NCBI RefSeq assembly: GCF_024223415.1
Contig: NZ_CP100500.1
From: Escherichia coli
GTDB lineage: Bacteria > Pseudomonadota > Gammaproteobacteria > Enterobacterales > Enterobacteriaceae
Length of the DNA stretch: 64,000 bases
Reading direction: 5' to 3' (one strand)
Shown piece after piece: positions 5,880 to 60,786 of the stretch. The first letter of the stretch is position 1, and every line of letters begins with the position of its first letter. Under the pieces are notes generated by a model. It was not told where the DNA came from and did not search any database. It saw only the letters and a program-made list of their open reading frames with translations. A program made the translations under genes and the position numbers.

Positions 5880-6072
5880 CCGTCAACTTCACATGAAACC
5901 CGCCAGAGCACTGTTTCCGGATTCAGACATCAGGCATATTATCATCCACGATGTCGTGAACAAGATCACACTTTTGCAATTCCTTTATTGATCGAAAGCA
6001 GTTAATCACGGAAATTAATTACCGGAGTGAAAGCATTACTGCATCGTAAATATCTACCATTTTTGACTACAC

Positions 6073-6101
6073 CCTCTGACAGAATTTTCAGAGGGTTTTT
6101 T
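6073..6101 (+). terminator. intrinsic-terminator-like hairpin
   Basis: Perfect 8-bp stem ccctctga/tcagaggg with a 7-nt loop, followed by tttttt. Confidence 0.5.
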
Positions 6102-6185
6102 ATCAGTTTCACCATCCAACCCTGTACGCCAGAATGGTTTCACTGTCACTCAGTTCTGCTATTGCCTTTTTCATCTCCCTTTACC

Positions 6186-6400
6186 TTACGTTCTGCCAGA
6201 GTCTGAGCCATTTGAACAGGAGGTTATCATTGATATCGTGTTCCCGGGCAATACGGGCAACAGAGGCTCCTGGTTGCAAAGCCAGTTTAACCATTTGAAG
6301 TTTAACTCATTTGAAAATGATCTGCGGGGTTCTGCGGATAATGTTTTTGCTCCATAACAGGCGCCCACCAGTTTGAAAAGGTGGGCACCTACGTTACCAA
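6186..6400 (-). pseudogene. IS3-family orfA-like remnant (frameshifted)
   Basis: Minus-strand frames encode ...RRSFSNELNFKW... and MVKLALQPGASVARIAREHDINDNLLFKW..., resembling the HTH region of IS2/IS3-type OrfA; split across frames. Confidence 0.4.
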
Positions 6401-6556
6401 TACTGGCTTAATGGATACATACGGCGGTCGGTTCTTACGGTAAAACGACACAACCAAACGCTTCTTATCCTGCAATGAACTGCTTTATTACCGAGTTTAG
6501 TGACCGCACAGACACTCACTTTTAAGAAAAACAGAATGGTAAACAAACTCCATGAA

Positions 6557-6745
6557 TTACAATAGCTCTCTGGCTGCCGCCACAATAGCTTGCGCGGTTA
6601 ACCCGTACTCTCTCTGTAAAAAGTCCTGAGTTTCAACCTGGCCATACCGCTCTTTAACCCCCACCCGACGCATGGGCACAGGACAAGTTTCTACAAGCAC
6701 TTCAGCAACTGCTGAACCTAATCCATTATGAATACGGTAATGACT
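6557..6745 (-). pseudogene. 3' fragment of a transketolase-like (TPP enzyme) C-terminal-subunit gene, truncated at the IS1 end
   Basis: Minus-strand translation ...HNGLGSAVAEVLVETCPVPMRRVGVKERYGQVETQDFLQREYGLTAQAIVAAARELL then stop (6557-6559); the frame runs straight into the IS1-like inverted repeat at 6745. Confidence 0.5.
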
Positions 6746-6812
6746 CCAATTAGTTGAATTAGGAGTATAATAGCCACTTTTAAGGTTCTTTCATGGTCAC
6801 AGTTAACCTTCA

Positions 6813-7064
6813 TTGCTCCTGTTGCCAGTCCGTTCAGGTTTACCGTCACGGGAAGAACCCAAAGGACATGATCGATTTCGCTGCCGTGACTGTCATCGAG
6901 TGCTTCAGCTCACTTACCGTTACGAGGCCCGTAAACCGGGAGTTAAAGAGCAAATCACTGAAATGGCTTTCAACGGTGCCGGAGTTCGCGATACTGCCCG
7001 TACGCTGAAAATCGGCATTAATACTGTCATCCGGACTTTAAAAAACTCTCGCCACGAAGAATAA
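6813..7064 (+). CDS. insA: IS1-family InsA-like protein
   Basis: 83-aa ORF with Cys-rich N-terminus (CRDCHRVLQL) and InsA-like HTH (ITEMAFNGAGVRDTARTLKIGINTVIRTLKNS); divergent from canonical IS1 InsA. Confidence 0.7.
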   Translation: MLLLPVRSGLPSREEPKGHDRFRCRDCHRVLQLTYRYEARKPGVKEQITEMAFNGAGVRDTARTLKIGINTVIRTLKNSRHEE

Positions 7065-7082
7065 CGTCATACCCGGTCGCTC

Positions 7083-7377
7083 ATGCTGATATGGCACTCA
7101 TCTGCGAACTTGATGAGCAATGGAGTTTTGTCGGCAGTAAAGCGCGACAGCACTGGCTCTGGTACACGTACAACACGAAAACTGGTGGCGTTCTGGCCTA
7201 CACTTTTGGCCTACGGACTGATTAAACCTGTCGTGAATTGCTGGCGCTGCTTGCCCTTTTACCATCGGTATGTTGACCACTGACGAATGGGGTAGTTACA
7301 CCAGAGAGTTACCGAAGGAGAAGCATCTGACTGGTAAGATTTTTACTCAGCGCATTGAGCGCAACATCTACCTCTGA
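7083..7377 (+). pseudogene. insB: IS1-family InsB-like transposase, interrupted
   Basis: Pieces ...DEQWSFVGSKARQHWLWYTYNTKTGGVLAYTFG... and ...DEWGSYTRELPKEKHLTGKIFTQRIERN... match InsB but lie in different frames with stops. Confidence 0.6.
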
Positions 7378-8019
7378 GAACCCGAATCAAACGTCTGGCC
7401 CGCAGAACTATCTGTTTCTCGCGCTCTGTAGAACTTCATGAAAAAGTCATCGGTGCCTTTATCGAAAAATATATGTTCTACTAATTGGAGTCACCACCTT
7501 CGTTTGTTTAAAGAACCTGCTGGTCCTGCCATTAATATTACCTGCTGATTGCTTCACATCCGGATTCCTCGCACTGCGCGCGGGTTATTGTTTCGTTTTC
7601 GGCCACGGGGTCGCCAGGGCTCTGTTTGCAGGCCATGATGGCCTGACCTGTACTGTTTCTCAGGCACTGAGATGTCCGTTTACGCCATTTGTTCCCTGCC
7701 CCTCTGTCTGATAACGAATACGCTCACAACGCACAGTACTGAACAATACCGACAACAACATGTCTTACATGAAATTCGCTGTAACATCCACCGGAAAACA
7801 TTTTCAGATATCGGATGAGGTACTACTTCCATTGACAGCGCGAGGTAACAAAATTGATGGTAACTCTGACCATTAACCGTAAACCGCAGGGTATTTTCAG
7901 TAAATCACCGGCAACGCCGCTGCAGGATAAAACGGACACAGCATACAAAATGAAGGCCGGTGACCAGATACCACAGTTGAACGATAAACAGAAACCTGCT
8001 GATAAAACACCGTGGCGAC

Positions 8020-8365
8020 ATGACAAAACGCCAGAGCAAAAACCGTAAGCGCATTATTCGTCTTGTGGAACTCTGGCCTGAGTCATTCAACCGGGAAAAA
8101 AACAAAACCACTTAAAGTGGGGATACCTGACGACCTGATACAGGATATCGCCATCCGAGAACTGGCGTTTGGCGCTGGTACATTACATGCAGCAGTGGCG
8201 TCTTATGTGCAGTCTCCGCGCTATTACCGTGCGTTAATAGCAGGTGGCGCCCGTTACAACCTGAACGGTCAGCCGTGCGGGGAAGTGACACCACAGGAAC
8301 AGAAAGAGGCAGAGACCCGTTTAATGATGCTGAATGACCGACGAAAAGACAGAAAACCTCGTTGA
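8020..8365 (+). CDS. FinO/ProQ-domain RNA-binding protein, frameshifted in an A7 run
   Basis: Frame from ATG 8020 gives MTKRQSKNRKRIIRLVELWPESFNREK then a stop; the next frame continues KPLKVGIPDDLIQDIAIRELAFGAGTLHAAVASYVQSPRYYRALIAGGARYNLNGQPCGEVTPQEQKEAE, matching the ProQ N-terminal/FinO domain signature. The frames join if the A7 run at 8096-8102 is A6. Confidence 0.6.
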
Positions 8366-8382
8366 CTGCACAACAGCGCTGT

Positions 8383-9135
8383 TCACTGAGCTGTAATCAA
8401 TGTACAGCGCTGTACCGGGCGATGGGTAATACCGGTCACAACCGGTAACCCCAGAGACAATGCAACTGTTTTTAACGCAATATACTGGCCGGATGTATCA
8501 CCCCGGGCAGCCTGAAAACACCTTTCCACCCGGCATTGTCCGTCAGCACTTATCACCCGCCATGTCTGTTGCAATAAATCCACCCGTTGCGAACATTCTT
8601 CATCAACCGTGGCACTGACCCGTGGATGGCAAATGCTCGTCTGGCTGAGCAGCAACAGGCATCGCATTGTTGCTCCTCCATGTTGTTCCCGCAACCAGCG
8701 TAATACCACCGGTGGTGCTGGACTGGCCGTGTGATTACGTTCAGTAATACGCTCGTGCACCTGTCGGTAAAAGGAAGTACAGAATGCATGAATCTGTTGT
8801 CCGTTGATGTTTCCTTCTGCCGAATGGAGTGTGAAGTGGACGGCCAGCAGACGCGGCCAGTGATCCACCGCCTGCTGAATAAAACGCCGGATTTCCACCG
8901 GCTCTGAAAGTACGGTTTCGGTTATTTGCACGATTTGATCCCCTTGAATGTTGCTGAACCGGTGTCGGTACGCAGGAAAGCACGCCGAGACCGGTACGAT
9001 GCCTGTTACAGCGAAGAACGAGGAATGACAGACGGGGGCAGCAGGTCGCCAGCACCAGGGACAGGGCTGATTTCCACAATACCAACGCTGGTATTTTGCA
9101 CATTGCCAGCGTACCGGCATTACAACACGTTTCAT
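8383..9135 (-). CDS. Gp2-family (YagK/YfjJ-like) island protein, third paralog, possibly degenerate
   Basis: Shares a motif pattern with the two upstream paralogs (LLAVHFTLHS..., VLRWLREQHGG...MRCLLLLS). Start uncertain; the Met at 9135 would overlap the alpA stop in an ATGA arrangement. The N-terminal region is low-complexity. Confidence 0.45.
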   Translation of the reverse strand: MKRVVMPVRWQCAKYQRWYCGNQPCPWCWRPAAPVCHSSFFAVTGIVPVSACFPAYRHRFSNIQGDQIVQITETVLSEPVEIRRFIQQAVDHWPRLLAVHFTLHSAEGNINGQQIHAFCTSFYRQVHERITERNHTASPAPPVVLRWLREQHGGATMRCLLLLSQTSICHPRVSATVDEECSQRVDLLQQTWRVISADGQCRVERCFQAARGDTSGQYIALKTVALSLGLPVVTGITHRPVQRCTLITAQ

Positions 9136-9368
9136 GCTGCTGCCCCTCGTGATGCCTCGATTCGTTGCTGCATCCACTGCTCCACTTCACTTTTGTACCA
9201 GCGGCTGCTGCGCCCCAGTTTGATGGGTTTAGGGAAATGGCCTTCACTGATCAGCTTGTAAAACCATTTGTCGGTCATACCAGTGAAGCTGGTGATGTAG
9301 TTCATGTCGATCAGGGGATCGTCGGCACGCAGCAATACGCTGTCGTGACCTGTCATTGAGGTCAACAT
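9132..9368 (-). CDS. alpA: AlpA-family phage/island transcriptional regulator
   Basis: Small ORF with the AlpA-type HTH (MTDKWFYKLISEGHFPKPIKLGRSSRWYKSEVEQW); the true start may be an internal Met. Confidence 0.75.
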   Translation of the reverse strand: MLTSMTGHDSVLLRADDPLIDMNYITSFTGMTDKWFYKLISEGHFPKPIKLGRSSRWYKSEVEQWMQQRIEASRGAAA

Positions 9369-9436
9369 GGTCAGAATGTCCTCTGTGAGATTTATGAATG
9401 TTGGGCAAATGCGGGTGAATCTGCTGAGCTGAGCTT

Positions 9437-10039
9437 TCAGAGCTGGCCTGCTACGGGATACCAGGGATTACCGGCGAGGTAACGGGCTTCCGGATCGCGC
9501 ACACCACGACGATCGCGGGCGAAATCACTGAACGCCCATATCAGCTCTTTGAGTCTCTCTTCGCAGTCCGGTGAACAACTGTCCAGCGCCACATCCCGGG
9601 TTATCTGTTTCTGGTACGGTGCCGCTTCACCCGGTGACGCGAAGCCCAGTACGTTGCTCCAGGCATCCAGAATCAGCCGATCCAGTTCAGGGCCGTCGAA
9701 ATACTCCTGTCTGACGCACAGCACCACGTGGTATTCCGGTTTTTCAGGATGACGAGTCAGGAGCCAGCAGAGGTCACGTCCGGGTGTTGCATTCATCAGC
9801 GCACTGACGGTTTCGATAAAGGCCATACCGAACCAGGTTTTTCTGTCGCTGAAGATGTTGCCATGTTCCCCCGGCAGACGAAGCAGGATCCGCCGTATTC
9901 GGGAGCAGGACTGCTCGCGCAACACACGGTTGAGAACGCCGATGATTTTGTTCTGATAAGATGGCCAGAAGGGCGCCATGCTATAGTCGAAATAAGGGAT
10001 AGCATTCATAAGATATGTTCCGTTATACGCAGCCCACAA
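9437..10039 (-). CDS. Gp2-family (YagK/YfjJ-like) island protein
   Basis: 200-aa ORF paralogous to 10366-11097 (e.g. ...KPEYHVVLCVRQEYFDGPELDRLILDAWSNVLG); belongs to the family common in CP4-type islands. Confidence 0.6.
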   Translation of the reverse strand: MWAAYNGTYLMNAIPYFDYSMAPFWPSYQNKIIGVLNRVLREQSCSRIRRILLRLPGEHGNIFSDRKTWFGMAFIETVSALMNATPGRDLCWLLTRHPEKPEYHVVLCVRQEYFDGPELDRLILDAWSNVLGFASPGEAAPYQKQITRDVALDSCSPDCEERLKELIWAFSDFARDRRGVRDPEARYLAGNPWYPVAGQL

Positions 10040-10365
10040 CGCGTCCTGCCCGTGGATGCGCTGACGTGTTATGGCTTGCGTATGGGGTTGATGGAATAAG
10101 TGAAAAACCGCGGCAGAACGGGAAGATCAGGTAACCGACAAGGGACAGAACACCGGATGCAGGTTCAGAATGAATGATCTCCGTTGACTTCGGTTCACAT
10201 CATTAAGCAGGACAGTAAGGTTTTACCGACGGAGTGTTTCCAGGAGCGAAAGCAGAGAAAAATACCGTTGCATGACTTCAGGACGACTTTTTCAGAAAAC
10301 GAGCTAAGGGCGTCAGCCAACGTCCTGTAGCATAAGCTCAGGCACCGGATGTCGTTTTACAGGGC

Positions 10366-11097
10366 TCACCTGCCATCCAGCAGACGCCCCGGCCCACGAC
10401 TGCAACCATAATTACGTTGCCCGGAACCGTCATGCTGCTTCGTCTCATATTTCACGAGATAACTGGCTCTGTTCCGGGCTTTCTGCAGCGCTTCCACATC
10501 ACCACGCTTGATCCAGAGAACAGCGGCTTCACCCGGCTTTTTTTCTGAAGCCTTCCTGGTATCAGAACATCCACCCGACAAAGGCGTGTCATCGGAAGAA
10601 GGGCGAGCATCAGACGATGCTGGTTTACGGGAAGGCGTCCACCTGGAAAAATGGGCCAGGCCATCGCCTTGCCAGGCCTCAAGATGCAGGGCGCTGCACC
10701 ATGCCTCCAGGATCATCGTCGCCAGCGAAGATGGTTCGCTGAAATCCCCTGGCGAGCACCAGGTATCTTTGTTGAGCAGCAATATCACGTGATAATGTTT
10801 CCTGCCTTTTTCCTTGCCAAACTCCCGACACCAGAAATAACGCAGAGTGGTTGCACGCACACGCTTGTTGGCACGTCGTTTTTTCCGCTGGTAAGCCTGG
10901 ATTTTGGCTTTCAGGGATTCGAAAAAACGAGAAATCACCGCTGAATCCGGATCGGGATCCATGATGGTGACAGGCATATACTCAGGGAAACGTAAATCCA
11001 CCCGGATTAACGAGACGGCACGGTGCTGCGACAGGGCACTGTCGAGAAGGCTGTCAAAACGGGATAACCAGTAAGCATTGTGTATTGGTTGATTCAT
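10366..11097 (-). CDS. Gp2-family (YagK/YfjJ-like) island protein
   Basis: 243-aa ORF (...RKHYHVILLLNKDTWCSPGDFSEPSSLATMILEAWCSAL...); its upstream leader shares a motif with the leader of 9437-10039. Confidence 0.6.
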   Translation of the reverse strand: MNQPIHNAYWLSRFDSLLDSALSQHRAVSLIRVDLRFPEYMPVTIMDPDPDSAVISRFFESLKAKIQAYQRKKRRANKRVRATTLRYFWCREFGKEKGRKHYHVILLLNKDTWCSPGDFSEPSSLATMILEAWCSALHLEAWQGDGLAHFSRWTPSRKPASSDARPSSDDTPLSGGCSDTRKASEKKPGEAAVLWIKRGDVEALQKARNRASYLVKYETKQHDGSGQRNYGCSRGPGRLLDGR

Positions 11098-12755
11098 GAT
11101 GAGAGATCTCCGTTGATTTGGATTGACTTCACATCATTAATCACCGCGGTAAAACTTTACGGCATCATGTCATTAAGCAATGCTACAACTCTCTGATTAA
11201 GAGTGATTGAAACGGAACAAACCATCCCGGAACGAAAAGATAATCCTGCACACAGCAGCAAAACACGCAACAACAGCATGAATGGATTTAAAAACGACAT
11301 GGACGACGAGAAAAGCCTGAAGGGAAAAGGATCCACAGAACATTCGAACAAAACACCAGAAACGCAACCAGAACGCTTCCTGGCAATGCAAATCAACAAC
11401 AACGCCAAAACCTACAGCTTAATCACACAACTCAATCACGAATGCGAATGACACGTTTAAAACCTGTTTACAGATAACGCCGTAACACGATCATCCCCAT
11501 CACCATCAGAATCGATTTTCTCATCCCGAAAATGTTACGTTTCACTACTCACCATAAAAACGATTAACCATCGATAACGTAAATCTCATCTGAATCAAAA
11601 AACCAAAACCAATCATCACACTTTCGCAATGCAAGAAGAAAAACCACATCATGACGAAAACAATGACCTTACATGAAAAAGCAAAACGTCAGGAATCGTT
11701 AATGCCTCAATCTGATTGTTATCAAAACATCCAGAAAGTCGTTTAACAGAATCGTCGTAAGCACATCGAAAAGAACGTCAGATCACCTCAGGAAAGTTCG
11801 GGTTGATTTAGCGTAAAGATACTTTTCTCAGCTTAACGTCGAAACACAAACCAAAAACCACAAACAACCAAAGCTCAGGAAAGGTTAAACGTCACATCAG
11901 TAAAATCGAATAGCAGATTGATTGCTTAAACAGGAAGGATTGTTTTACAGCAGCATTAAACTGATTTAGTTAACGTAAAATCAGAACTGACAGGTTTACT
12001 AACTTGGATGTGTATCAGTTCAAAAATGTGTACAGCAATGCGTAATGAAACACATTTAAAGGAGATTAATGGGAAAAGTGTGTAAATGCGTAAACAGGCA
12101 CTAATGAATCACTGGAGGAATACATACAAAACGACTTAATGAAAACATAAAAGGACCTAATGGAAAAGGTGTATATAATACCATATCCGACATTCTCAAC
12201 ATCTTAAGACATCCATGCAGACTGAATGTTGGTTTCAGTTTTTCACGGTAAGCATGAATCTTTTCTGTTCAAAAGCAGAGCAGATTTACTCTGGAATTAT
12301 TTTTCTTACTCCGTATTCTGTACAGCAAAAACTTGTGCTAACTTTACAGCAAACCATCATAATCAGCGTCTGTAGTCCCATCGCTTTACCCCATGAAAGT
12401 GAATCCATATGATGTGAGAGAGATAAGTCATCGTATCCGGTAAACACTGCTTACTATAACATAAGATCATTCAGTCAGTTTTATCTCTGAACTGACGATT
12501 ATGGCATGCTCATTTATATGGCTCACAGAGGAGTGTTATTATCCGTAAGCTTTAATCATCAAATCACATGACCATACCAAACTGGCGCTATATCAGCTCA
12601 TTTGACGCTCATTCCCTTTAGATTTCTTTATGTGTTTTTTGTCGATAATTAAAATGTAATATAAATTTAATATTTTCACATCATAAACACCATTTAAAAC
12701 CATCATCCTGAACATCATACAACAATATATTTTTACTAAAGCATGAATTGTATAT

Positions 12756-13904
12756 TTATATTAATTCAGGAAAATTATCAGGATTCACCTTTAAATTCAA
12801 CTGAATGTTACACTTAATTTCACTCAGCAGTTCTTCATGCGTGGATTTTATTATCCCTTTATCATAATCTATAAATACACACATGTTTTTCATGAATTCA
12901 AACCCTTTTCCTGTATACAGTTTGATGAATGCCACAAGAGCAAACATTTCAAGATGCAGCCATAATGCCACGTGAGTTTTTCGCAAAGTATAAAAAATTG
13001 AATTCGCCACTTTTTTACTTATTGCTCTTTTGTACTGTGAGTGCGCCAGATTCAGTAGTGGCAATTCTCTCTCGATAAATGAAAGTGAAAAAGGCGGGTA
13101 AATTGATGTCGGAAATATTTCAGGTCTTATGATATTTTCGATTTCCACCATAAATCTATCCATAGAACGAAAATCATTTTCTTTTTTTATTCTGGTATAG
13201 AGACCGCCTTTATTCCTTACTGCGACTTTTTTTCGTGCTATCCCCCCCAACATTTCCTCTAATTGTTTATTTATCTTCGTATCATTAAATACAACCATTC
13301 TTCTTATCATCCTGGGAAGGATGATAATATCAGAGCTTGAATCACTTGAACGGCAATTATTATTGATCCATGCAACTTCAAGTTGAAGTATCGGAACATT
13401 AAATTCTCTGGGGTTAATAACTCTCTGATATTGTTTTTTGTATGCGTTTTCATTAAGATATTCTCTGCTGTAGAGAAACTTATAGCAATATAATCTGACA
13501 ATATCCTTTATGTAAGATTTAAATGAGTCACCTGTAACAGATATATTTTTTCTTCTCAGTAACTCCTGTGTATTGAGCCATTCCCGTGACCGGAGTACTC
13601 CATTATGAAGACTTTTTCTTACTTGCTTTGAATTGCGCAATTGATGTAATATTTTTGCGTCCTCAACAATTCTCTTTCCCGTTTGATTTCTTGCAGCATC
13701 TATTACTCTGTCAAATATCTCCCGGTCCAGACTTTTGTCATATTTACTGATTATACGACAAATATTCCTGACCCGACGGTTCTCTTTATTTCGTTTCCAT
13801 AACTGATAATGATCATCACATAACCTCAGGGCATTTGCCTCATCAAATTCTGAAACAGGATTGCTGCATTTTTTATTCCGACAGATACCTTTGTTTTTAG
13901 CCAT
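12756..13904 (-). CDS. hypothetical protein, orphan AT-rich island cargo gene, function unknown
   Basis: Uninterrupted 382-aa ORF, visibly AT-rich against the flanking genes; N-terminal Cys/His cluster (CRNKKCSN...LCDDHYQLW), K/R-rich, no long hydrophobic segments. No family recognised by me. Divergent from the YeeP-like gene across a 100-bp intergenic region. Confidence 0.6.
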   Translation of the reverse strand: MAKNKGICRNKKCSNPVSEFDEANALRLCDDHYQLWKRNKENRRVRNICRIISKYDKSLDREIFDRVIDAARNQTGKRIVEDAKILHQLRNSKQVRKSLHNGVLRSREWLNTQELLRRKNISVTGDSFKSYIKDIVRLYCYKFLYSREYLNENAYKKQYQRVINPREFNVPILQLEVAWINNNCRSSDSSSDIIILPRMIRRMVVFNDTKINKQLEEMLGGIARKKVAVRNKGGLYTRIKKENDFRSMDRFMVEIENIIRPEIFPTSIYPPFSLSFIERELPLLNLAHSQYKRAISKKVANSIFYTLRKTHVALWLHLEMFALVAFIKLYTGKGFEFMKNMCVFIDYDKGIIKSTHEELLSEIKCNIQLNLKVNPDNFPELI

Positions 13905-14004
13905 ACTCTTCTTCCCGTCAATGGAAAAATTTTCACGTCCATATTACCTGACTGATAGGCCGGATTAATGTGATCCGGTTCAGTGAAATCAACAGGATAA
14001 CGGT

Positions 14005-14889
14005 ATGTCATTCAGCCATTCTTCCCTCTCCGCACACGTAAAGTCACATCTGACCTTTCTTCCTGAAGAAATTCGCCAGAAAATCCTTGAACATCTTCGC
14101 AGCGTCATTCAGTACGAACCCGTTATTGGCATTATGGGTAAATCCGGTGCCGGAAAAAGCAGCCTGTGCAATGCCATTTTTCAGTCCCGTGTCTGCGCCA
14201 CGCATCCGCTGAACGGCTGCACCCGTCAGGCTCATCGTCTTACCTTTCAGCCCGGTGAACGAAGAATGACGCTGGTCGATCTGCCCGGCACTGGCGAAAC
14301 ACCACAGCATGATCAGGAATACCGGGCACTTTACAGTCAGTTACTGCCCGAACTGGATCTGATTATCTGGATCCTGCGGGCTGATGAACGTGCGTATGCT
14401 GCCGACATCGCCATGCATCAGTTTTTACTGAATGAAGGTGCCGATCCCTCGCGTTTTCTGTTTGTTCTCAGCCATGCCGATCGCATCCACCCGGCTGAAG
14501 AATGGAACAACCAGAGCAGCACGCCATCCCGTCAGCAGGAACTCTCACTGGCGACGGTGACAGCCCGGGTGGCAACCCTGTTCCCTTCATCATTTCCGGT
14601 ACTCCCCATAGCCGCCCCTGCCGGCTGGAATCTTCCGGCATTTGTGTCTCTGATGATCCACGCCCTGCCACCACAGGCAACCAGCGCGGTTTATTCGCAT
14701 ATCCGGAATGAAAAGCGCACTGCGCAGGATCAGCAACACGCACAGCAGGCTTTTGGTGACGCCATCGGCCAGAGTTTTGACGCTGCCATTGCCCGGTTCA
14801 GCTTTCCGGCCTGGATGCTGCAGCTTCTGCGCAAAGCCCGTGATCGCATTATCCGCCTGCTGATCACACTGTGGGATCGCCTGTTCTGA
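14005..14889 (+). CDS. YeeP/YfjP/YkfA-family GTPase
   Basis: 294-aa ORF with P-loop GIMGKSGAGKSSLCNAIF and DLPGTGE motif; typical first gene of the CP4-type conserved module. Confidence 0.8.
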   Translation: MSFSHSSLSAHVKSHLTFLPEEIRQKILEHLRSVIQYEPVIGIMGKSGAGKSSLCNAIFQSRVCATHPLNGCTRQAHRLTFQPGERRMTLVDLPGTGETPQHDQEYRALYSQLLPELDLIIWILRADERAYAADIAMHQFLLNEGADPSRFLFVLSHADRIHPAEEWNNQSSTPSRQQELSLATVTARVATLFPSSFPVLPIAAPAGWNLPAFVSLMIHALPPQATSAVYSHIRNEKRTAQDQQHAQQAFGDAIGQSFDAAIARFSFPAWMLQLLRKARDRIIRLLITLWDRLF

Positions 14890-15074
14890 ATGTCCCCGCT
14901 TTTTGACCGGCCCCGGCGATAACCAGGAAACGCATTTCCGGTTGCGTCACCACAATGCTGAAGGGCTTCGGTAAACCCTCATTCATTTCATCCATCAGGC
15001 CGCGTCTTCTCCGTGAGACGCGGCTTTTTCATTGATTACGTCATTCAGTCTTAACCACTGATAAGGAGCAAAGT

Positions 15075-15893
15075 ATGCGATTAGCCAGTCGTTTTGGTTA
15101 TGCGAACCAGATACGCCGTGACCGTCCGCTGACCCGTGAAGAGCTGATGCACCATGTGCCCGGGATTTTCGGGGAAGATAAACACACCTCCCGGAGCCGG
15201 AACTATACATACATCCCCACCATCACCGTGCTGGAAAGCCTGCAGCGGGAAGGCTTTCAGCCATTCTTCGCCTGCCAGACCCGCGTACGTGACCCGGGCC
15301 GCCGGGGGTATACCAAACACATGCTGCGTCTGCGCCGTGACGGGGAGATAAACGGACAACATGTCCCTGAAATTATTCTGCTCAACTCTCATGACGGTAC
15401 CTCCAGCTACCAGATGCTGCCGGGTTACTTCAGGTTCGTCTGCCAGAACGGATGCGTCTGCGGTCAGTCTCTGGGGGAAGTGCGTGTTCCGCACCGGGGA
15501 AATGTGGTGGACAGAGTCATTGAAGGGGCTTACGAGGTGGTGGGCGTGTTTGACCGGATAGAGGAGAAGCGTGATGCCATGCAGTCGCTGGTCCTGCCGC
15601 CACCGGCACGCCAGGCGCTGGCACAGGCGGCACTGACTTACCGTTATGGTGACGAACATCAGCCCGTCACCACCGCCGACATTCTGACGCCGCGACGCCG
15701 GGAGGATTACGGTAAGGACCTGTGGAGCGCATATCAGACCATCCAGGAGAATATGCTGAAAGGCGGGATTTCCGGTCGCAGTGCAAAAGGAAAACGTATC
15801 CATACCCGGGCCATTCACAGCATTGATACCGACATTAAGCTCAATCGCGCATTGTGGGTGATGGCAGAAACGATGCTGGAGAGCCTGCGCTGA
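15075..15893 (+). CDS. DUF932-family protein (YfjQ/YafZ-like)
   Basis: 272-aa ORF closely resembling remembered YfjQ/YafZ sequences (MRLASRFGY...ILLNSHDGTSSYQ...). Confidence 0.8.
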   Translation: MRLASRFGYANQIRRDRPLTREELMHHVPGIFGEDKHTSRSRNYTYIPTITVLESLQREGFQPFFACQTRVRDPGRRGYTKHMLRLRRDGEINGQHVPEIILLNSHDGTSSYQMLPGYFRFVCQNGCVCGQSLGEVRVPHRGNVVDRVIEGAYEVVGVFDRIEEKRDAMQSLVLPPPARQALAQAALTYRYGDEHQPVTTADILTPRRREDYGKDLWSAYQTIQENMLKGGISGRSAKGKRIHTRAIHSIDTDIKLNRALWVMAETMLESLR

Positions 15894-15974
15894 TGCCGTT
15901 TCCCTGAGTGAGGGAATCATTCAGCTTTCGTTCCTGAAAAACACACATTTATTTGTTATTTAAGGAGTTATCTC

Positions 15975-16454
15975 ATGAAAACCGTTTCTCAGAATACCCC
16001 CACAATTTATTCAGCTACAACACCAGAGAATAATCCGCCTCAGTTGGTTGCCAGCCTCGTCCCTGATGAACAGCGCATCAGCTTCTGGCCGCAGCACTTT
16101 GGCCTCATTCCACAGTGGGTGGCCCTGGAGCCCCGTGTCTTCGGCTGGATGGACCGTCTGTGTGAAGACTACTGCGGTGGTATCTGGAATCTGTACACCC
16201 TGAACAACGGCGGGGCATTTATGGCACCCGAACCGGATGACGATGATGACGAAACATGGGTACTGTTCAATGCCATGAACGGTAACCGCGCTGAAATGAG
16301 TCCGGAAGCTGCCGGCATTGCTGCCTGTCTGATGACGTACAGTCATCACGCCTGTCGTACGGAGTGTTATGCCATGACGGTCCATTATTACCGGCTGCGG
16401 GATTACGCCCTGCAGCATCCGGAATGCAGCGCCATTATGCGCATCATCGACTGA
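15975..16454 (+). CDS. antirestriction protein, KlcA/ArdB-like (YfjX/YafX family)
   Basis: 159-aa ORF with an acidic stretch (PEPDDDDDE), position and sequence typical of the island antirestriction proteins. Confidence 0.75.
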   Translation: MKTVSQNTPTIYSATTPENNPPQLVASLVPDEQRISFWPQHFGLIPQWVALEPRVFGWMDRLCEDYCGGIWNLYTLNNGGAFMAPEPDDDDDETWVLFNAMNGNRAEMSPEAAGIAACLMTYSHHACRTECYAMTVHYYRLRDYALQHPECSAIMRIID

Positions 16455-16946
16455 ATGGAGGCAGGGACAATGCAGCAGCTTTCCTTTCTGCCCGGAGAGA
16501 TGACGCCCGGCGAGCGCAGTCTCATTCTGCGGGCCCTGAAAACTCTGGACCGCCATCTTCATGAACCCGGCGTGGCCTTCACCTCCACCCGTGCGGCACG
16601 GGAATGGCTGATTCTGAACATGGCGGGACTGGAGCGTGAAGAATTCCGGGTGCTGTATCTGAATAACCAGAATCAACTGATTGCCGGTGAAACCCTCTTC
16701 ACCGGCACCATCAACCGCACGGAAGTCCATCCCCGGGAAGTGATTAAACGCGCCCTGTACCACAATGCCGCTGCCGTGGTGCTGGCGCACAATCACCCGT
16801 CCGGTGAAGTCACACCCAGCAAGGCAGACCGCCTTATCACGGAACGTCTGGTACAGGCACTGGGCCTGGTGGATATCCGGGTGCCGGACCATCTGATAGT
16901 CGGTGGCAACCAGGTTTTCTCCTTTGCCGAACATGGTCTGCTTTAA
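16455..16946 (+). CDS. RadC-like JAB-domain protein (YeeS/YfjY/YkfG family)
   Basis: JAB/MPN motif HNHPSGEVTPSKADRLITERL; start may be the internal Met (MQQLSF..., 16470). Confidence 0.8.
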   Translation: MEAGTMQQLSFLPGEMTPGERSLILRALKTLDRHLHEPGVAFTSTRAAREWLILNMAGLEREEFRVLYLNNQNQLIAGETLFTGTINRTEVHPREVIKRALYHNAAAVVLAHNHPSGEVTPSKADRLITERLVQALGLVDIRVPDHLIVGGNQVFSFAEHGLL

Positions 16947-17008
16947 CCCGTCACAACCACATCACGCTTGTTTGCACTTTTATCTTCTGTCTTCAGAGGT
17001 ATCACACT

Positions 17009-17230
17009 ATGAAAATCATCACCCGTGGTGAAGCCATGCGTATTCACCAACAACATCCGGCATCCCGTCTTTTTCCTTTCTGTACCGGCAAATACCGCTG
17101 GCACGGCAGTGCTGAGGCGTATACCGGTCGTGAAGTGCAGGATATTCCCGGTGTGCTGGCCGTGTTTGCTGAACGCCGTAAGGACAGTTTTGGCCCGTAT
17201 GTCCGGCTGATGAACGTCACTCTGAACTGA
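17009..17230 (+). CDS. yeeT: DUF987 protein (YeeT/YkfH-like)
   Basis: 73-aa ORF, near-identical to remembered YeeT (MKIITRGEAMRIHQQHP...). Confidence 0.8.
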   Translation: MKIITRGEAMRIHQQHPASRLFPFCTGKYRWHGSAEAYTGREVQDIPGVLAVFAERRKDSFGPYVRLMNVTLN

Positions 17231-17248
17231 GTCAGTAAGGGCACTCTG

Positions 17249-17880
17249 ATGAGCAGAATTATCACCATCACAGTGTATACGCTGGATGAACTTTCCTGCC
17301 CGGCACGGGAAAAAGCCCGCGACGGGTACCGTCAGCATCATGCTGACAGCAACTGGTATGAAAACGTGTATGAGGACGTCAGGGAGGTCTGTGGCATTTT
17401 CGGAATTGACCTCTGCCAGCGTGTTATCCGTCTCAGCAACGGCAGGTTTATGGAAGAGCCGTGCATCTGGTTCAGCGGATTCTGCAGCCAGGGACGGAGC
17501 CTGTTTTGAAGGACGCTGGCACTGGCAGTCAGCAACAACCAGGAGAGTCCGGGAGTATGCCCCGCAGAACCGTGAGCTTCATCGTATCGCGGATGCCCTG
17601 CAGGCGGTGCAGAAACGTAACTTCTGGCAACTGCAGGCTGAAATCCACCACCGGGGACGTTACTGCCATCCGTTATCACTGTTACCCGGAACAGTCCGAC
17701 TGGTCAGGCTATGACAGCCGATGCGGAAGCCGCTGTCAGCGAAGCCCTGCGCGACCTGGCCTTCTGGCTGTACCGTCAACTGGAAAACGAGTACGACCAG
17801 ATGACCTCAGACGCCGCTGTGGATGAGGCCATTCTCATCAATGCATACATCTTCACCGAAACCGGTCAGCGCACCGGCTG
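17249..17880 (+). pseudogene. island ORF split across frames, family unknown
   Basis: Protein-like translation runs in one frame (17249-17509), shifts to a second (to 17714), then returns to the first (ATG 17711 to stop 17878-17880, ...AVSEALRDLAFWLYRQLENEYDQ...). Two frame changes would be needed for a single product. Confidence 0.45.
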
Positions 17881-17930
17881 ACCTGTCATCGTTAAACCAT
17901 TCTTAACCACTTTTCAGAGAGGATTTTATC

Positions 17931-18299
17931 GTGTCAGACACACTCTCCGGGATAACTCATCCCGACGACAATCACGACCGCCCCTGGTGGGGGCTTCCCT
18001 GCACAGTGAGGCCCTGTTTTGGCGCCCGTCTGGTGCAGGAGGGTAACCGCCTGCATTACCTTGCCGACCGCGCCGGCATCAGAGGCCGGTTCAGCGATGC
18101 GGATGCATACCATCTGGACCAGGCCTTTCCGCTGCTGATGAAACAACTGGAACTCATGCTCACCAGCGGTGAACTGAATCCCCGCCATCAGCATACCGTC
18201 ACGCTGTATGCAAAAGGGCTGACCTGCGAAGCCGACACCCTCGGCAGTTGTGGTTACGTTTATCTGGCTGTTTATCCGACGCCCGAAACGAAAAAGTAA
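17931..18299 (+). CDS. cbeA: type IV toxin-antitoxin antitoxin CbeA (YeeU family)
   Basis: 122-aa ORF near-identical to remembered CbeA/YeeU (MSDTL...NHDRPWWGLPCTV...). Confidence 0.85.
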   Translation: MSDTLSGITHPDDNHDRPWWGLPCTVRPCFGARLVQEGNRLHYLADRAGIRGRFSDADAYHLDQAFPLLMKQLELMLTSGELNPRHQHTVTLYAKGLTCEADTLGSCGYVYLAVYPTPETKK

Positions 18300-49330: not shown

Positions 49331-50422
49331 ATGCGTTTTCTGCGCCGACCAATATCGCTGCGCCAACGGCTGATATTGACCATCGGGGCCATTTTGTTGG
49401 TGTTTGAGCTGATTAGCGTCTTCTGGCTATGGCATGAAAGTACCGAGCAGATTCAGCTGTTTGAGCAGGCGCTACGCGACAATCGCAACAACGATCGCCA
49501 CATCATGCGTGAGATCCGCGAGGCGGTCGCCAGCCTGATTGTCCCCGGCGTCTTTATGGTCAGCCTGACGCTATTTATCTGCTATCAGGCGGTACGCCGC
49601 ATCACCCGCCCGCTGGCGGAGCTGCAAAAAGAGCTGGAAGCGCGCACCGCCGACAACTTAACGCCCATTGCCATTCACAGCGCCACCCTCGAAATCGAAG
49701 CGGTGGTTTCGGCGTTGAACGATCTGGTCAGTCGCCTGACCAGCACGCTGGATAACGAAAGGTTATTTACCGCTGACGTCGCGCACGAACTGCGAACGCC
49801 ACTGGCGGGGGTGCGTTTGCATCTGGAACTGCTGGCGAAAACGCATCACATTGATGTAGCACCGTTAGTGGCACGGCTTGATCAGATGATGGAGAGCGTC
49901 TCCCAGCTGCTGCAACTGGCGCGTGCCGGACAGTCATTTTCTTCCGGTAATTATCAACATGTAAAACTGCTGGAAGATGTCATTCTCCCCTCGTATGACG
50001 AACTCAGTACCATGCTCGACCAGCGACAGCAAACCCTGCTATTGCCAGAGAGCGCCGCCGACATCACCGTTCAGGGTGATGCAACCCTGCTGCGGATGTT
50101 ATTGCGAAACCTGGTAGAAAACGCCCATCGTTACAGCCCGCAAGGCAGCAACATTATGATTAAGCTGCAAGAAGATGGCGGAGCGGTCATGGCCGTTGAA
50201 GATGAAGGACCAGGTATTGATGAGAGTAAATGCGGGGAGTTGAGTAAAGCGTTTGTACGTATGGACAGCCGTTATGGCGGGATTGGTCTGGGGTTAAGTA
50301 TTGTCAGCCGCATTACACAGTTGCATCACGGGCAGTTTTTCCTGCAAAACCGGCAAGAGACTTCCGGCACGCGGGCCTGGGTACGGCTGAAGAAAGATCA
50401 GTACGTGGCAAACCAGATATAA
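49331..50422 (+). CDS. basS: sensor kinase BasS (PmrB)
   Basis: Start at ATG 49331 (MRFLRRPISL..., 363 aa) matching BasS; the ORF track begins at an upstream TTG. Confidence 0.9.
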   Translation: MRFLRRPISLRQRLILTIGAILLVFELISVFWLWHESTEQIQLFEQALRDNRNNDRHIMREIREAVASLIVPGVFMVSLTLFICYQAVRRITRPLAELQKELEARTADNLTPIAIHSATLEIEAVVSALNDLVSRLTSTLDNERLFTADVAHELRTPLAGVRLHLELLAKTHHIDVAPLVARLDQMMESVSQLLQLARAGQSFSSGNYQHVKLLEDVILPSYDELSTMLDQRQQTLLLPESAADITVQGDATLLRMLLRNLVENAHRYSPQGSNIMIKLQEDGGAVMAVEDEGPGIDESKCGELSKAFVRMDSRYGGIGLGLSIVSRITQLHHGQFFLQNRQETSGTRAWVRLKKDQYVANQI

Positions 50423-50487
50423 AGAAAGCTGCTGACCACCAGCACGCTGAACACGGTAGTTAAACTTTCATAAACACGGTTTTTCAT
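50398..50487 (-). CDS. pmrR: small membrane protein PmrR
   Basis: 29-aa ORF found manually: MKNRVYESLTTVFSVLVVSSFLYIWFATY, with a GGAGG Shine-Dalgarno upstream; overlaps the 3' end of basS on the opposite strand. Confidence 0.6.
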   Translation of the reverse strand: MKNRVYESLTTVFSVLVVSSFLYIWFATY

Positions 50488-50601
50488 TGCACTCTCCTCC
50501 GTTAATCTGGAGGAGAGTATGCGCGGCAGAGATTAAGTGAACCTTAAGAGTTCAATTGTTGGTCTGATAAGACAGCGTCACATCAGGCCATCCGTTTCAG
50601 C

Positions 50602-57719: not shown

Positions 57720-57850
57720 TGGTGCGTCTTATCAGGCCTACGTCAGACAGCGCAATAGCCTGATTTAGCGTGATTTTGTAGGTCGGATAAGGCGTTTACG
57801 CCGCATCCGACATCAACGCCTGATGCGACGCTTAACGCGTCTTATCAGGC
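57720..57850. repeat. REP/BIME cluster on the right of the IS, downstream of yjcO
   Basis: Several palindromic units (gcgtcttatcaggcctac; aggtcggataaggcgtttacgccgcatccgaca; gcctgatgcgacgcttaacgcgtcttatcaggcctac). Confidence 0.65.
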
Positions 57851-57855
57851 CTACC

Positions 57856-58638: not shown

Positions 58639-60786
58639 TTACGCCAGTGCCGCTTCGCGCAGGCGAGTTTTCAACTTGTTGTACTCGTCAATCACGTACT
58701 GCTCGGCGGCGCGCTGATCGGCGATCGGCTCGACGCGCACGGCGCAGTATTTGTATTCCGGCGTTTTCGTAATCGGGCTTAAGTTTTCGGTAACCAGCTC
58801 GTTACAGGCACCAATCCACCACTGGTAGGTCATATAAATCGCCCCTTTGTTCGGACGATCGCTGACCTGCGCACGGGTGATAATTTTGCCTTTACGCGAG
58901 TGCACCCAAACCAATGCCTCATCTTCAATACCCAGACGTTTGGCGTCTTCGGTATTGATTTGTGCGTAGCCAGGTTCATCCGCCAGCGCCGCCAGTGCCG
59001 CACAGTTACCGGTCATCGAACGGCAAGAGTAGTGACCAACTTCACGCACCGTTGACAGTACCATCGGGTACTCGTCGGTGAGTTTGTCGATTGGCGCTAC
59101 CCAGTCGCAGGTGAAGAACTGCGCCAGACCGTTCGGGGTATCAAACTTCTCTTTAAACAGATAAGAAGTCCCCTGATCGGCATCTGAAGTATCGCGGCAA
59201 GGCCACTGAATGAAGCCCAGTTCGCCCATTTTCTCGTAAGTCGCACCGTAGAAATCCGGGCACAGATGACGCAACTCATCCCAGATCTCCTGGGTGTTGT
59301 TGTAGTGCATCGGATAACCCATACGGGTGGCGATTTCACTGATGATTTGCCAGTCCGTTTTCAGATCCCATTTCGGTTCAACTGCTTTGAAGAAACGCTG
59401 GAAGCCACGGTCAGCCGCAGTAAACACGCCTTCATGCTCGCCCCACGACGTTGACGGTAAAATAACATCCGCCGCCGACGCGGTTTTGGTCATAAAGATG
59501 TCCTGAACGATAACCAGTTCCAGATCTTCAAAGGCTTTACGTACTGCCGACAGCTCCGCGTCAGTTTGTAGCGGATCTTCGCCCATAATGTACGCGGCAC
59601 GCACTTCGCCATGCGCTGCGCGGTGCGGCAGCTCGCTGATGCGATAACCGGTATGAGCAGGCAGGCTTTCCACGCCCCAGGCTTTGGCGAATTTCTCGCG
59701 GTTAGCCGGATCTTTCACGTACTGGTATCCCGGATACGTATCCGGCAGCGCGCCCATATCGCAGGCACCCTGCACGTTGTTCTGACCACGAACCGGGTTT
59801 ACACCCGCATGCGGCTTACCGAGGTTACCGGTCAGCATCGCGAGGCTGGTCAGAGAACGCACGGTTTCCACGCCCTGGTAGAACTGGGTTACACCCATGC
59901 CCCACAGGATGGCGGCGCTTTTCGCCTGGGCATACATCCGTGCCGCCTGACGAATCTCACTGGCGCTGACGCCGGTGATATCTTCAACCGACTCCGGCGT
60001 GTAGCCTTCAACGATTTTACGATACTCTTCAAAGCCTTCTGTACGTGAAGCGACGAACGCTTTGTCGTACAGATTTTCTTCAATAATGACATGGCCCATC
60101 GCATTCAACAGCGCGATGTTCGAGCCGTTTTTCAGTGCAATGTGCATGTCAGCAATGCGCGCGGTTTCAATTTTGCGCGGATCGCAGACGATAATTTTCG
60201 CCCCGTTACGTTTAGCGTTAATTACGTGATTCGCCACGATTGGGTGGGAATCCGCCGGGTTGTACCCGAAAACGAACACTAAATCGGTATTATCAATTTC
60301 GTTAATAGCATTGCTCATTGCGCCATTACCGACCGATTGGTGCAGACCTGCAACCGATGGGCCGTGTCAGACACGAGCGCAGCAGTCAACGTTATTGGTA
60401 CCAATAACGGCGCGCGCAAATTTTTGCATTACATAGTTGGTTTCGTTACCCGTACCACGCGAGGAGCCGGTCGTCTGGATGGCATCCGGACCGTACTTCT
60501 CTTTGATGGCGCTCAGGCGCTCGGCAACGTAATTCAGTGCCTCATCCCAGGAAACAGGTTCGAGTTTGCCGCCACGCTGGCGACGGATCATGGGGGTTTT
60601 CAGGCGCGGGGTCAGGATCTGGGTATCGTTAATGAAATCCCAGCCATAATAACCCTTCAGACACAGGGTACCCTGGTTGGTTTTCCCCTGCGCTGCCTCC
60701 GCCCGGACGATTTTGCCGTTATCGACGACCAGGTTGATTTTGCAACCTGATGCGCAATAGGGGCAAACCGTGACGACTTTTTTCAT
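58639..60786 (-). CDS. fdhF: formate dehydrogenase H, selenocysteine-containing (UGA-Sec at 60367-60369)
   Basis: ORFs 60367-60786 and 58639-60318 are in the same frame separated only by TGA; the junction reads ...VDCCARV-U-HGPSVAGLHQSVGNG as in FdhF Sec140. Total 715 codons. Confidence 0.9.

Follow-up and report, generated by a model that had tools for sequence, protein, structure and literature searches.

The closest described relatives of the gene considered here are FinO-domain proteins encoded on bacterial chromosomes and plasmids. Escherichia coli ProQ (PDB 5nb9) is encoded by a core gene and has a linker and a Tudor-like C-terminal domain; its residues R58, R69, Y70 and R80 are known from the ProQ and RocC literature to bind RNA 3' ends and terminators. 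FinO of F-like plasmids (1dvo) is encoded on a mobile element and has an N-terminal extension before its FinO domain. In F itself, an IS3 insertion naturally inactivates finO, which provides a precedent for the loss of a mobile-element FinO gene. The minimal ProQ NMB1681 of Neisseria and RocC of Legionella are compact FinO-domain proteins, both of them intact chromosomal regulators with mapped RNA targets. In the literature on FinO proteins borne on islands, prophages or satellites, no study of the present subfamily was found.

The locus itself is already known as an annotated, widespread pseudogene. RefSeq entries made by PGAP (ECSMS35_RS30170 in SMS-3-5; JSQ86_RS24420 in E41) describe the same locus and the same allele, with 100% identity over 551 nt, and the label 'ProQ/FINO family protein; frameshifted', with bounds equal to 7857-8365, is found in SMS-3-5, 13P484A, YZMc17-1, APEC O2-211 and E41. 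These entries are silent on the positions and the frequency of the two frameshifts, and otherwise do not differ from what is reported here. Positions are those of the window, the whole stretch of 64,000 nucleotides of E. coli DNA that was analysed, and the features are collected in Table 1. The interval 7857-8365 is best read (probability about 0.85) as the pseudogene of an island FinO/ProQ-family protein of about 169 aa, consisting of a disordered extension and a FinO domain, that was inactivated in two steps.

Table 1. Features of the FinO/ProQ-family locus and its immediate surroundings, in window coordinates.
Feature	Coordinates	Strand	Basis or remark
Conserved non-coding leader/promoter region	7499-7856	+	aligned with other islands
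N-terminal extension remnant, 55 codons (MVTLTINRKPQGIF...TPWRH)	7857-8021	+	frame 0; translation, relatives, PGAP start
Lesion 1, 2-nt deletion, CAT ATG to CATG	8019-8022	+	frame 0 to frame 1; DNA alignment with strain 55989, three-frame translation
Frame-1 ORF, 31 aa (MTKRQSKNRKRIIRLVELWPESFNREKNKTT)	8020-8115	+	stop 8113-8115; ORF list
FinO domain, first part (helix 1, RKRIIRLVELWPESF)	8020-8095	+	frame 1, opens at conserved internal ATG
Frame-2 ORF, 100 aa, containing GKKTKPLKVGIPDDL	8063-8365	+	ORF list
Lesion 2, A7 homopolymer (in-frame form A6)	8096-8102	+	reading frame 1 to frame 2
FinO domain remainder (PLKVGI...SPRYYRAL...GARYNLNGQPCGEV) and basic C-terminal tail	8103-8365	+	frame 2, stop TGA 8363-8365
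Inverted repeat, two ACAGCGCTGT palindromes	8373-8413	.	in and beside the 17-nt gap between convergent genes; repeat search
UCP030791 / YagK-YfjJ-like 'putative phage-derived' gene, convergent	8383-8931	-	PGAP; Pfam PF27752 in L013-L021
AlpA-family helix-turn-helix regulator	9132-9368	-	ORF; Pfam PF05930 in orthologous loci

The sequence of the plus strand at 8090-8105 is ACCGGG-AAAAAAA-CAA, placing the A7 run at exactly 8096-8102, and the deletion of one A from this run fuses the frame-1 and frame-2 ORFs into a single ORF of 114 aa, to which a database protein (P0001) is identical. The repaired 114-aa sequence matches the Pfam ProQ/FINO model (PF04352) over residues 9-112 and model positions 5-107 of 109, with E=3.4e-21, and its matches in the PDB, with E-values from 1.8e-10 to 6.3e-7, include ProQ (5nb9, 1.8e-10), NMB1681 (1.9e-9), RocC (5.9e-8) and FinO. 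The Pfam and PDB matches put the observation of the domain far above chance. The first-pass annotation, which was made from the letters alone, had described a FinO/ProQ-domain gene on a genomic island that is disrupted or phase-shifted at the A7 run and restored by A6, and had proposed a Pfam profile search as a check; that search found the domain, the island setting is confirmed by a CP4-like neighbourhood, and the break at the run and its repair by A6 are both borne out.

The match to E. coli ProQ extends over residues 8-102, and the window copy keeps the PLK(V/I)GI motif and the equivalents of ProQ R69, Y70 and R80 (SPRYY...GARY). The equivalent of R58, which is present in ProQ and is Arg in at least 90% of the family alignment, is His in the window allele. 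The island family also differs from ProQ in having an N-terminal extension and neither the linker nor the Tudor-like domain, and the window gene differs further in being island-borne and broken. Similarity to plasmid FinO amounts to about 34% identity over the domain, but the window gene has no tra genes as neighbours, and an antisense partner of the FinP type was not found. The 114-aa form encoded with A6 resembles NMB1681 and RocC in its compactness, whereas the window ORF is interrupted. An AlphaFold2 model built on a 37-sequence alignment has the expected order of helices and the β-hairpin, at low confidence (mean pLDDT 56.9, pTM 0.35), and its N-terminal ~50 residues are disordered (pLDDT <50).

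The repair of the A-run is not sufficient to restore the ancestral gene. Intact relatives found by searching with the repaired protein are 158-185 aa long and start at the equivalent of window position 7857, and the full-length proteins P0014, P0018 and P0048 open with MVTLTINRKPQGIF...TPWRH and pass straight into MTKRQRKNRKR. In the window the same extension is also out of frame because of the 2-nt deletion at 8019-8022, frame 0 from 7857 reading on in the wrong register until a stop at 8046-8048; re-insertion of AT together with removal of one A gives a single ORF of 169 aa. The Met at 8020 is conserved in at least 90% of full-length members in the family alignment and, given the full-length relatives and the ORF obtained by double repair, MTKRQ is therefore a conserved internal Met and not the ancestral N-terminus. 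The earlier reading of a ProQ-like N-terminus at MTKRQ thus has to be given up, the family start lying 55 codons upstream, at 7857, beyond the fixed 2-nt deletion, and the single-site picture that accompanied it was correct on the A7 break and overlooked the second frameshift, at 8019-8022. A single-frameshift model is ruled out by the full-length relatives, the PGAP boundaries, and the start at 7857 with its 2-nt deletion. With frameshifts at 8019-8022 and 8096-8102, the domain is not encoded by an uninterrupted ORF, and the locus is therefore a pseudogene of the ProQ/FinO family rather than a functional member of it. On the evidence of these reading frames, standard decoding is predicted to be unable to make a full-length FinO-domain protein.

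Two other allele classes were encountered. A '552-nt' class (99.5% identity), considered as a possible intact version, was rejected, as the class is itself frameshifted and its additional base follows the stop. The lineage of strain 55989 (L005 3003-3517) has an independent 5-nt duplication that also parts the extension from the domain, giving ORFs of 57 aa and 114 aa with an ATGA overlap; an isoform with the domain alone may be tolerated and perhaps even put to use.

The frequency of both lesions was determined in 5,426 complete E. coli genomes, using a 551-nt query for the locus and 96-98-nt queries centred on the A-run, in which one indel brings identity below 99%. The locus was found in 867 of the 5,426 genomes (337 with at least 99% identity); the exact A7 97-mer was present in 347, the exact A6 query in 2 and the exact A8 query in none. 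Exact products were also counted in a collection of 15 billion proteins, where the 82-aa product derived from A7 occurs on at least 1,000 contigs and the 100-aa product on 63 (together at least 1,063), and the exact A6 product on 19. An intact CATATG with window-type flanks was found exactly in 0 of 377 matching genomes, and the 2-nt deletion is common to all 12 of the 12 close alleles aligned. From these counts, both lesions are therefore genuine and inherited.

The alternative that A7 is a homopolymer error of sequencing or assembly in a gene that is really intact draws on the frequency of single-base homopolymer miscalls and on the existence of an A6 version in the databases (P0001). It is extremely improbable, as the identical A7 97-mer occurs in 347 independently assembled complete genomes and its product on at least 1,000 contigs, and the 2-nt deletion, present in every close allele, lies outside any homopolymer; the census of tract lengths and the contig counts exclude such an error as the cause of A7. 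The first-pass annotation had named as fatal to its own reading an A-run that is correct together with a gene truncated in all relatives: the run is indeed correct, but the relatives are not all truncated. The persistence of unchanged lesions in hundreds of strains, together with the public pseudogene label, points to ordinary gene decay rather than to a switch or a sequencing error.

The history of the run can be followed in the alignment with outgroup alleles, which read GAA AAA CCx (A5); the window lineage acquired A6 through a Pro-to-Thr replacement (CCA to ACA), and then A7. Pairwise dN/dS values of 0.08-0.32 show purifying selection on the FinO domain across the family. Changes private to the window lineage comprise 8 non-synonymous and 6 synonymous substitutions, and 7 of the 8 replacements (R6S, N13I, L22S, P28T, R56H, D80N and K82N) alter residues that do not vary among six other homologues with identities as low as about 65%. 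Among these, R6S, L22S, P28T, R56H (equivalent to ProQ R58) and D80N are at positions conserved in at least 90% of the 37-sequence family alignment. The dN/dS of the window lineage, about 0.4 on 14 changes, is raised but not demonstrably neutral, and the pattern of replacements, albeit in small numbers, fits relaxed constraint.

Copies with A6 do not form one clade, but are spread over three or more flanking haplotypes that are also found with A7 (L004 with L019, L002 with L016, and the window with L020/L021). The closely related strains APEC IMT5155, in which the run is A6 and the gene is annotated as intact, and APEC O2-211, in which it is A7, have the PTS-LacI context in common, and the protein P0002 combines the A6 form with the R-to-C change private to APEC O2-211. 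The genome GCA_027279515.1 contains two island copies (L019 and L020), both with A6 and both with a private CC-to-TA change at 8489-8490, on differing flanking haplotypes; the common TA suggests gene conversion between island paralogues. The presence of A6 on several haplotypes means that the length of the tract has occasionally changed, or that it has been miscalled or converted, and low-level reversion or slippage back to A6 is possible. Both this recurrence of A6 and the intact equivalents of R69, Y70 and R80 stand against full decay of the gene.

The same records could be taken to describe a phase-variable contingency switch, in which A6 would be the ON state, encoding a functional domain-only FinO of 114 aa, and A7 the OFF state, toggled by slippage. 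The co-occurrence of A6 and A7 on at least three haplotypes, the A6 form of P0002 on the O2-211 background, the contrast of IMT5155 with O2-211 in the same chromosomal context, and the retention of the domain-only 114-aa ORF by the 55989 lineage in 408 contigs (P0029) would agree with such a switch. It is nevertheless quite unlikely. The census is strongly skewed, A7 exceeding A6 by 347 to 2 with no A8 among the genomes and by at least 1,063 to 19 among the contigs (an A6-to-A7 ratio of about 1:60 to 1:170). The supposed ON form would still lack the N-terminal extension, since the 2-nt deletion is kept, and it carries the seven replacements at residues invariant in the six other relatives, five of them at positions conserved in at least 90% of the family. 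Some A6 records may stem from gene conversion or from miscalled homopolymers in assemblies of long or 454 reads, and a tract of A7 is short for a contingency locus. Such loci usually have 8-9 or more repeats. Neither a two-way polymorphism of tract length among close strains nor an otherwise intact and constrained ON protein was found, so that the 'phase-shifted' half of the first-pass wording is weak, and the evidence does not indicate a working phase switch.

A looser form of this idea would make the A-run a site at which mutation turns an island-borne, domain-only FinO RNA chaperone on or off; rare A6 revertants would regain a functional 114-aa protein from the internal Met, acting on an island or satellite transcript. 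It is likewise unlikely. If true, the roles of the protein might include antisense control of the UCP030791 and AlpA genes, or replication control in primase-SSB-FinO-PerC elements, and the near-fixation of A7 might represent selection for derepression, as the loss of finO derepresses transfer of F.

Decay of the reading frame also has to be set against recoding, in which transcriptional slippage on A7, or +1 or -2 ribosomal frameshifting, would restore the frame in some products and yield a low level of FinO-domain protein. Homopolymeric A runs support slippage of RNA polymerase in E. coli, and the frame-1 reading A_AAA_AAC is a slippery heptamer with a small hairpin (CCACTTAAAGTGG) 5 nt downstream. 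A +1 shift would be needed to pass from frame 1 into frame 2, whereas A_AAA_AAC favours -1 into frame 0, where a stop follows after about 13 codons, and ribosomal frameshifting by -1 on this heptamer was rejected since it leads into the wrong frame. The run itself is not conserved, and the A5 or A6 of in-frame relatives indicates that a slippery site is not under selection; a conserved slippery run with a matching direction of shift, as expected of programmed frameshifting, was thus not found. A7 is also below the run length for efficient transcriptional slippage, which generally needs 9 or more A residues, and any product would still lack the N-terminal extension, making recoding a very unlikely explanation, although some low-level leakiness may occur.

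Translation could instead begin downstream of the A-run lesion or in its new frame, giving a functional truncated protein from the 100-aa ORF starting at TTG 8063 or from an 82-aa ORF starting at GTG 8117. Both ORFs keep the β-hairpin and the R69/Y70/R80-equivalent pocket and have been called as genes in many records, but both miss helix 1 (Pfam model positions ~5-25; ProQ residues 24-41), an element of the conserved fold; neither a promoter nor strong evidence of a start site was found for them, and PGAP treats the locus as a pseudogene. A functional truncated product is accordingly highly improbable.

The pseudogene lies at the left edge of a CP4-like module, in which the FinO gene (+) converges on a UCP030791/YagK-like gene (-) followed by AlpA (-), a hypothetical gene (-) and YagK/YfjJ (-), and which continues with a YfjP-type GTPase, DUF932, antirestriction, RadC and CbeA/CbtA genes. 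This neighbourhood is present in the annotation of E41 and SMS-3-5, and again in the loci L013-L021. In the best-matching genomes (E41, 99.4% over 12 kb, window 6000-18000) the module belongs to an aerobactin-bearing island adjoining yghD/gsp, with many IS remnants. The E41 island also contains, at L006 23246-25827, a frameshifted antitoxin, a frameshifted CbtA toxin, truncated DUF5983 and DUF4942 genes, and several degraded IS elements; decay is a general feature of the island. Homology to islands with other left-hand cargo starts at 7499 (blastn against L003 and L004).

Several observations concern the flanks of the gene. A 30-nt segment of the leader is absent at 7687 in the window and in E41; every other close allele has it, as does the outgroup L013. 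On the minus strand, 8383-11097 holds three YagK/YfjJ, inovirus-Gp2-like or UCP030791 genes (8383-8931, 9437-10009 and 10366-11097) in tandem with AlpA, forming repeated paralogues. The two ACAGCGCTGT palindromes where the convergent genes meet form a 17-nt inverted repeat, which has no T-tract and is therefore not a canonical terminator; it looks more like a candidate protein-binding site or RNA hairpin.

Intact full-length copies occur in an identical gene context in L013 and L015, and the broken state is therefore derived. The proteins P0018 and P0027 likewise come from a convergent FinO and UCP030791-AlpA-YagK/YfjJ context identical to that of the window, but are intact. More widely, intact FinO proteins of islands or satellites in Enterobacteriaceae (P0018, 168 aa; P0048, 180 aa; P0095 from Salmonella; P0113 from Citrobacter) have 59-92% identity and the architecture of the repaired window protein, namely a variable N-terminal extension (LTINRKP...TPWRH), the internal Met, the FinO domain and a basic tail. 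Intact relatives from E. coli, Salmonella and Citrobacter with 70-75% identity are encoded in another operon, in which a DUF4222 gene is followed by a primase/helicase (D5_N/DUF927/AAA_25), SSB, FinO and PerC. The FinO stop overlaps the PerC start in this operon, and AlpA and AntA/Bro-N genes lie upstream (L007-L012). The FinO-family gene is located at about 6001-6540 in most of these loci, at 4006-4533 in L009 and at 3077-3619 in L012. This operon belongs to a putative satellite/PICI-like integrative element. A phage collection contained no close relatives, only distant FinO-domain matches at 31-41% identity, and the PHROGs families that match the protein carry no assigned function; a plasmid collection gave FinO at about 34% identity and one record with a fragmentary copy at 64%, with no close relative.

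FinO-domain proteins on mobile elements had been expected by the first-pass annotation to act with a small RNA, which was looked for in the two places where it had been suggested, 7500-8000 and 11100-12750, and was found in neither. Rfam gave nothing near the gene at the gathering threshold in a search of the whole window, and no match in 7300-13000 even at E<=1. Within the first of these regions, 7857-8019 is coding sequence and not an sRNA locus, and the leader (7499-7856) folds no better than shuffled sequence on either strand (z +0.96 and -0.44). A scan for sigma-70-like promoters found 0 sites, and terminator-like sites are at chance level (3 found against 2.1 expected), one of them, on the minus strand, consisting of a 5-bp hairpin followed by the complement of the A-run. 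The tract at 11100-12750 is AT-rich (GC 0.35-0.41) with an excess of A over T on the plus strand, has no sizeable ORF and is mostly unannotated; its conservation extends to 1,877 of the 5,426 complete E. coli genomes (60-90% identity), and no link between it and the FinO gene was found. Unrelated Rfam matches at the gathering threshold lie elsewhere in the window: the STnc630 sRNA (50391-50556, -), naRNA4 (CssrE; 57781-57851, +) and SECIS_2 (60320-60374, -).

The transition from an intact island FinO gene to the present pseudogene would have involved two losses of reading frame, although their order and the resulting loss of function are what we infer. The first would be the 2-nt deletion in CAT-ATG at 8019-8022, uncoupling the extension and leaving a domain-only ORF of 114 aa from the internal ATG at 8020. 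In the second, the Pro-to-Thr replacement would have lengthened A5 to A6, and replication slippage would then have produced A7, so that the domain ORF ends after 31 codons. The allele has spread with the CP4-like module into many E. coli lineages and chromosomal contexts, the locus probably decaying along with the rest of the island.

The main value of this locus is as a caution. A homopolymer frameshift can be stable and inherited even when it resembles a phase switch or an error of sequencing, and its 'repair' at a single site can overlook a second lesion upstream. A modestly useful by-product is the intact subfamily found at the edges of CP4-like modules or in the primase-SSB-FinO-PerC operons of satellite-like elements, and it is these intact copies, rather than the broken copy in the window, that offer the better entry to mobile-element FinO proteins outside plasmids.
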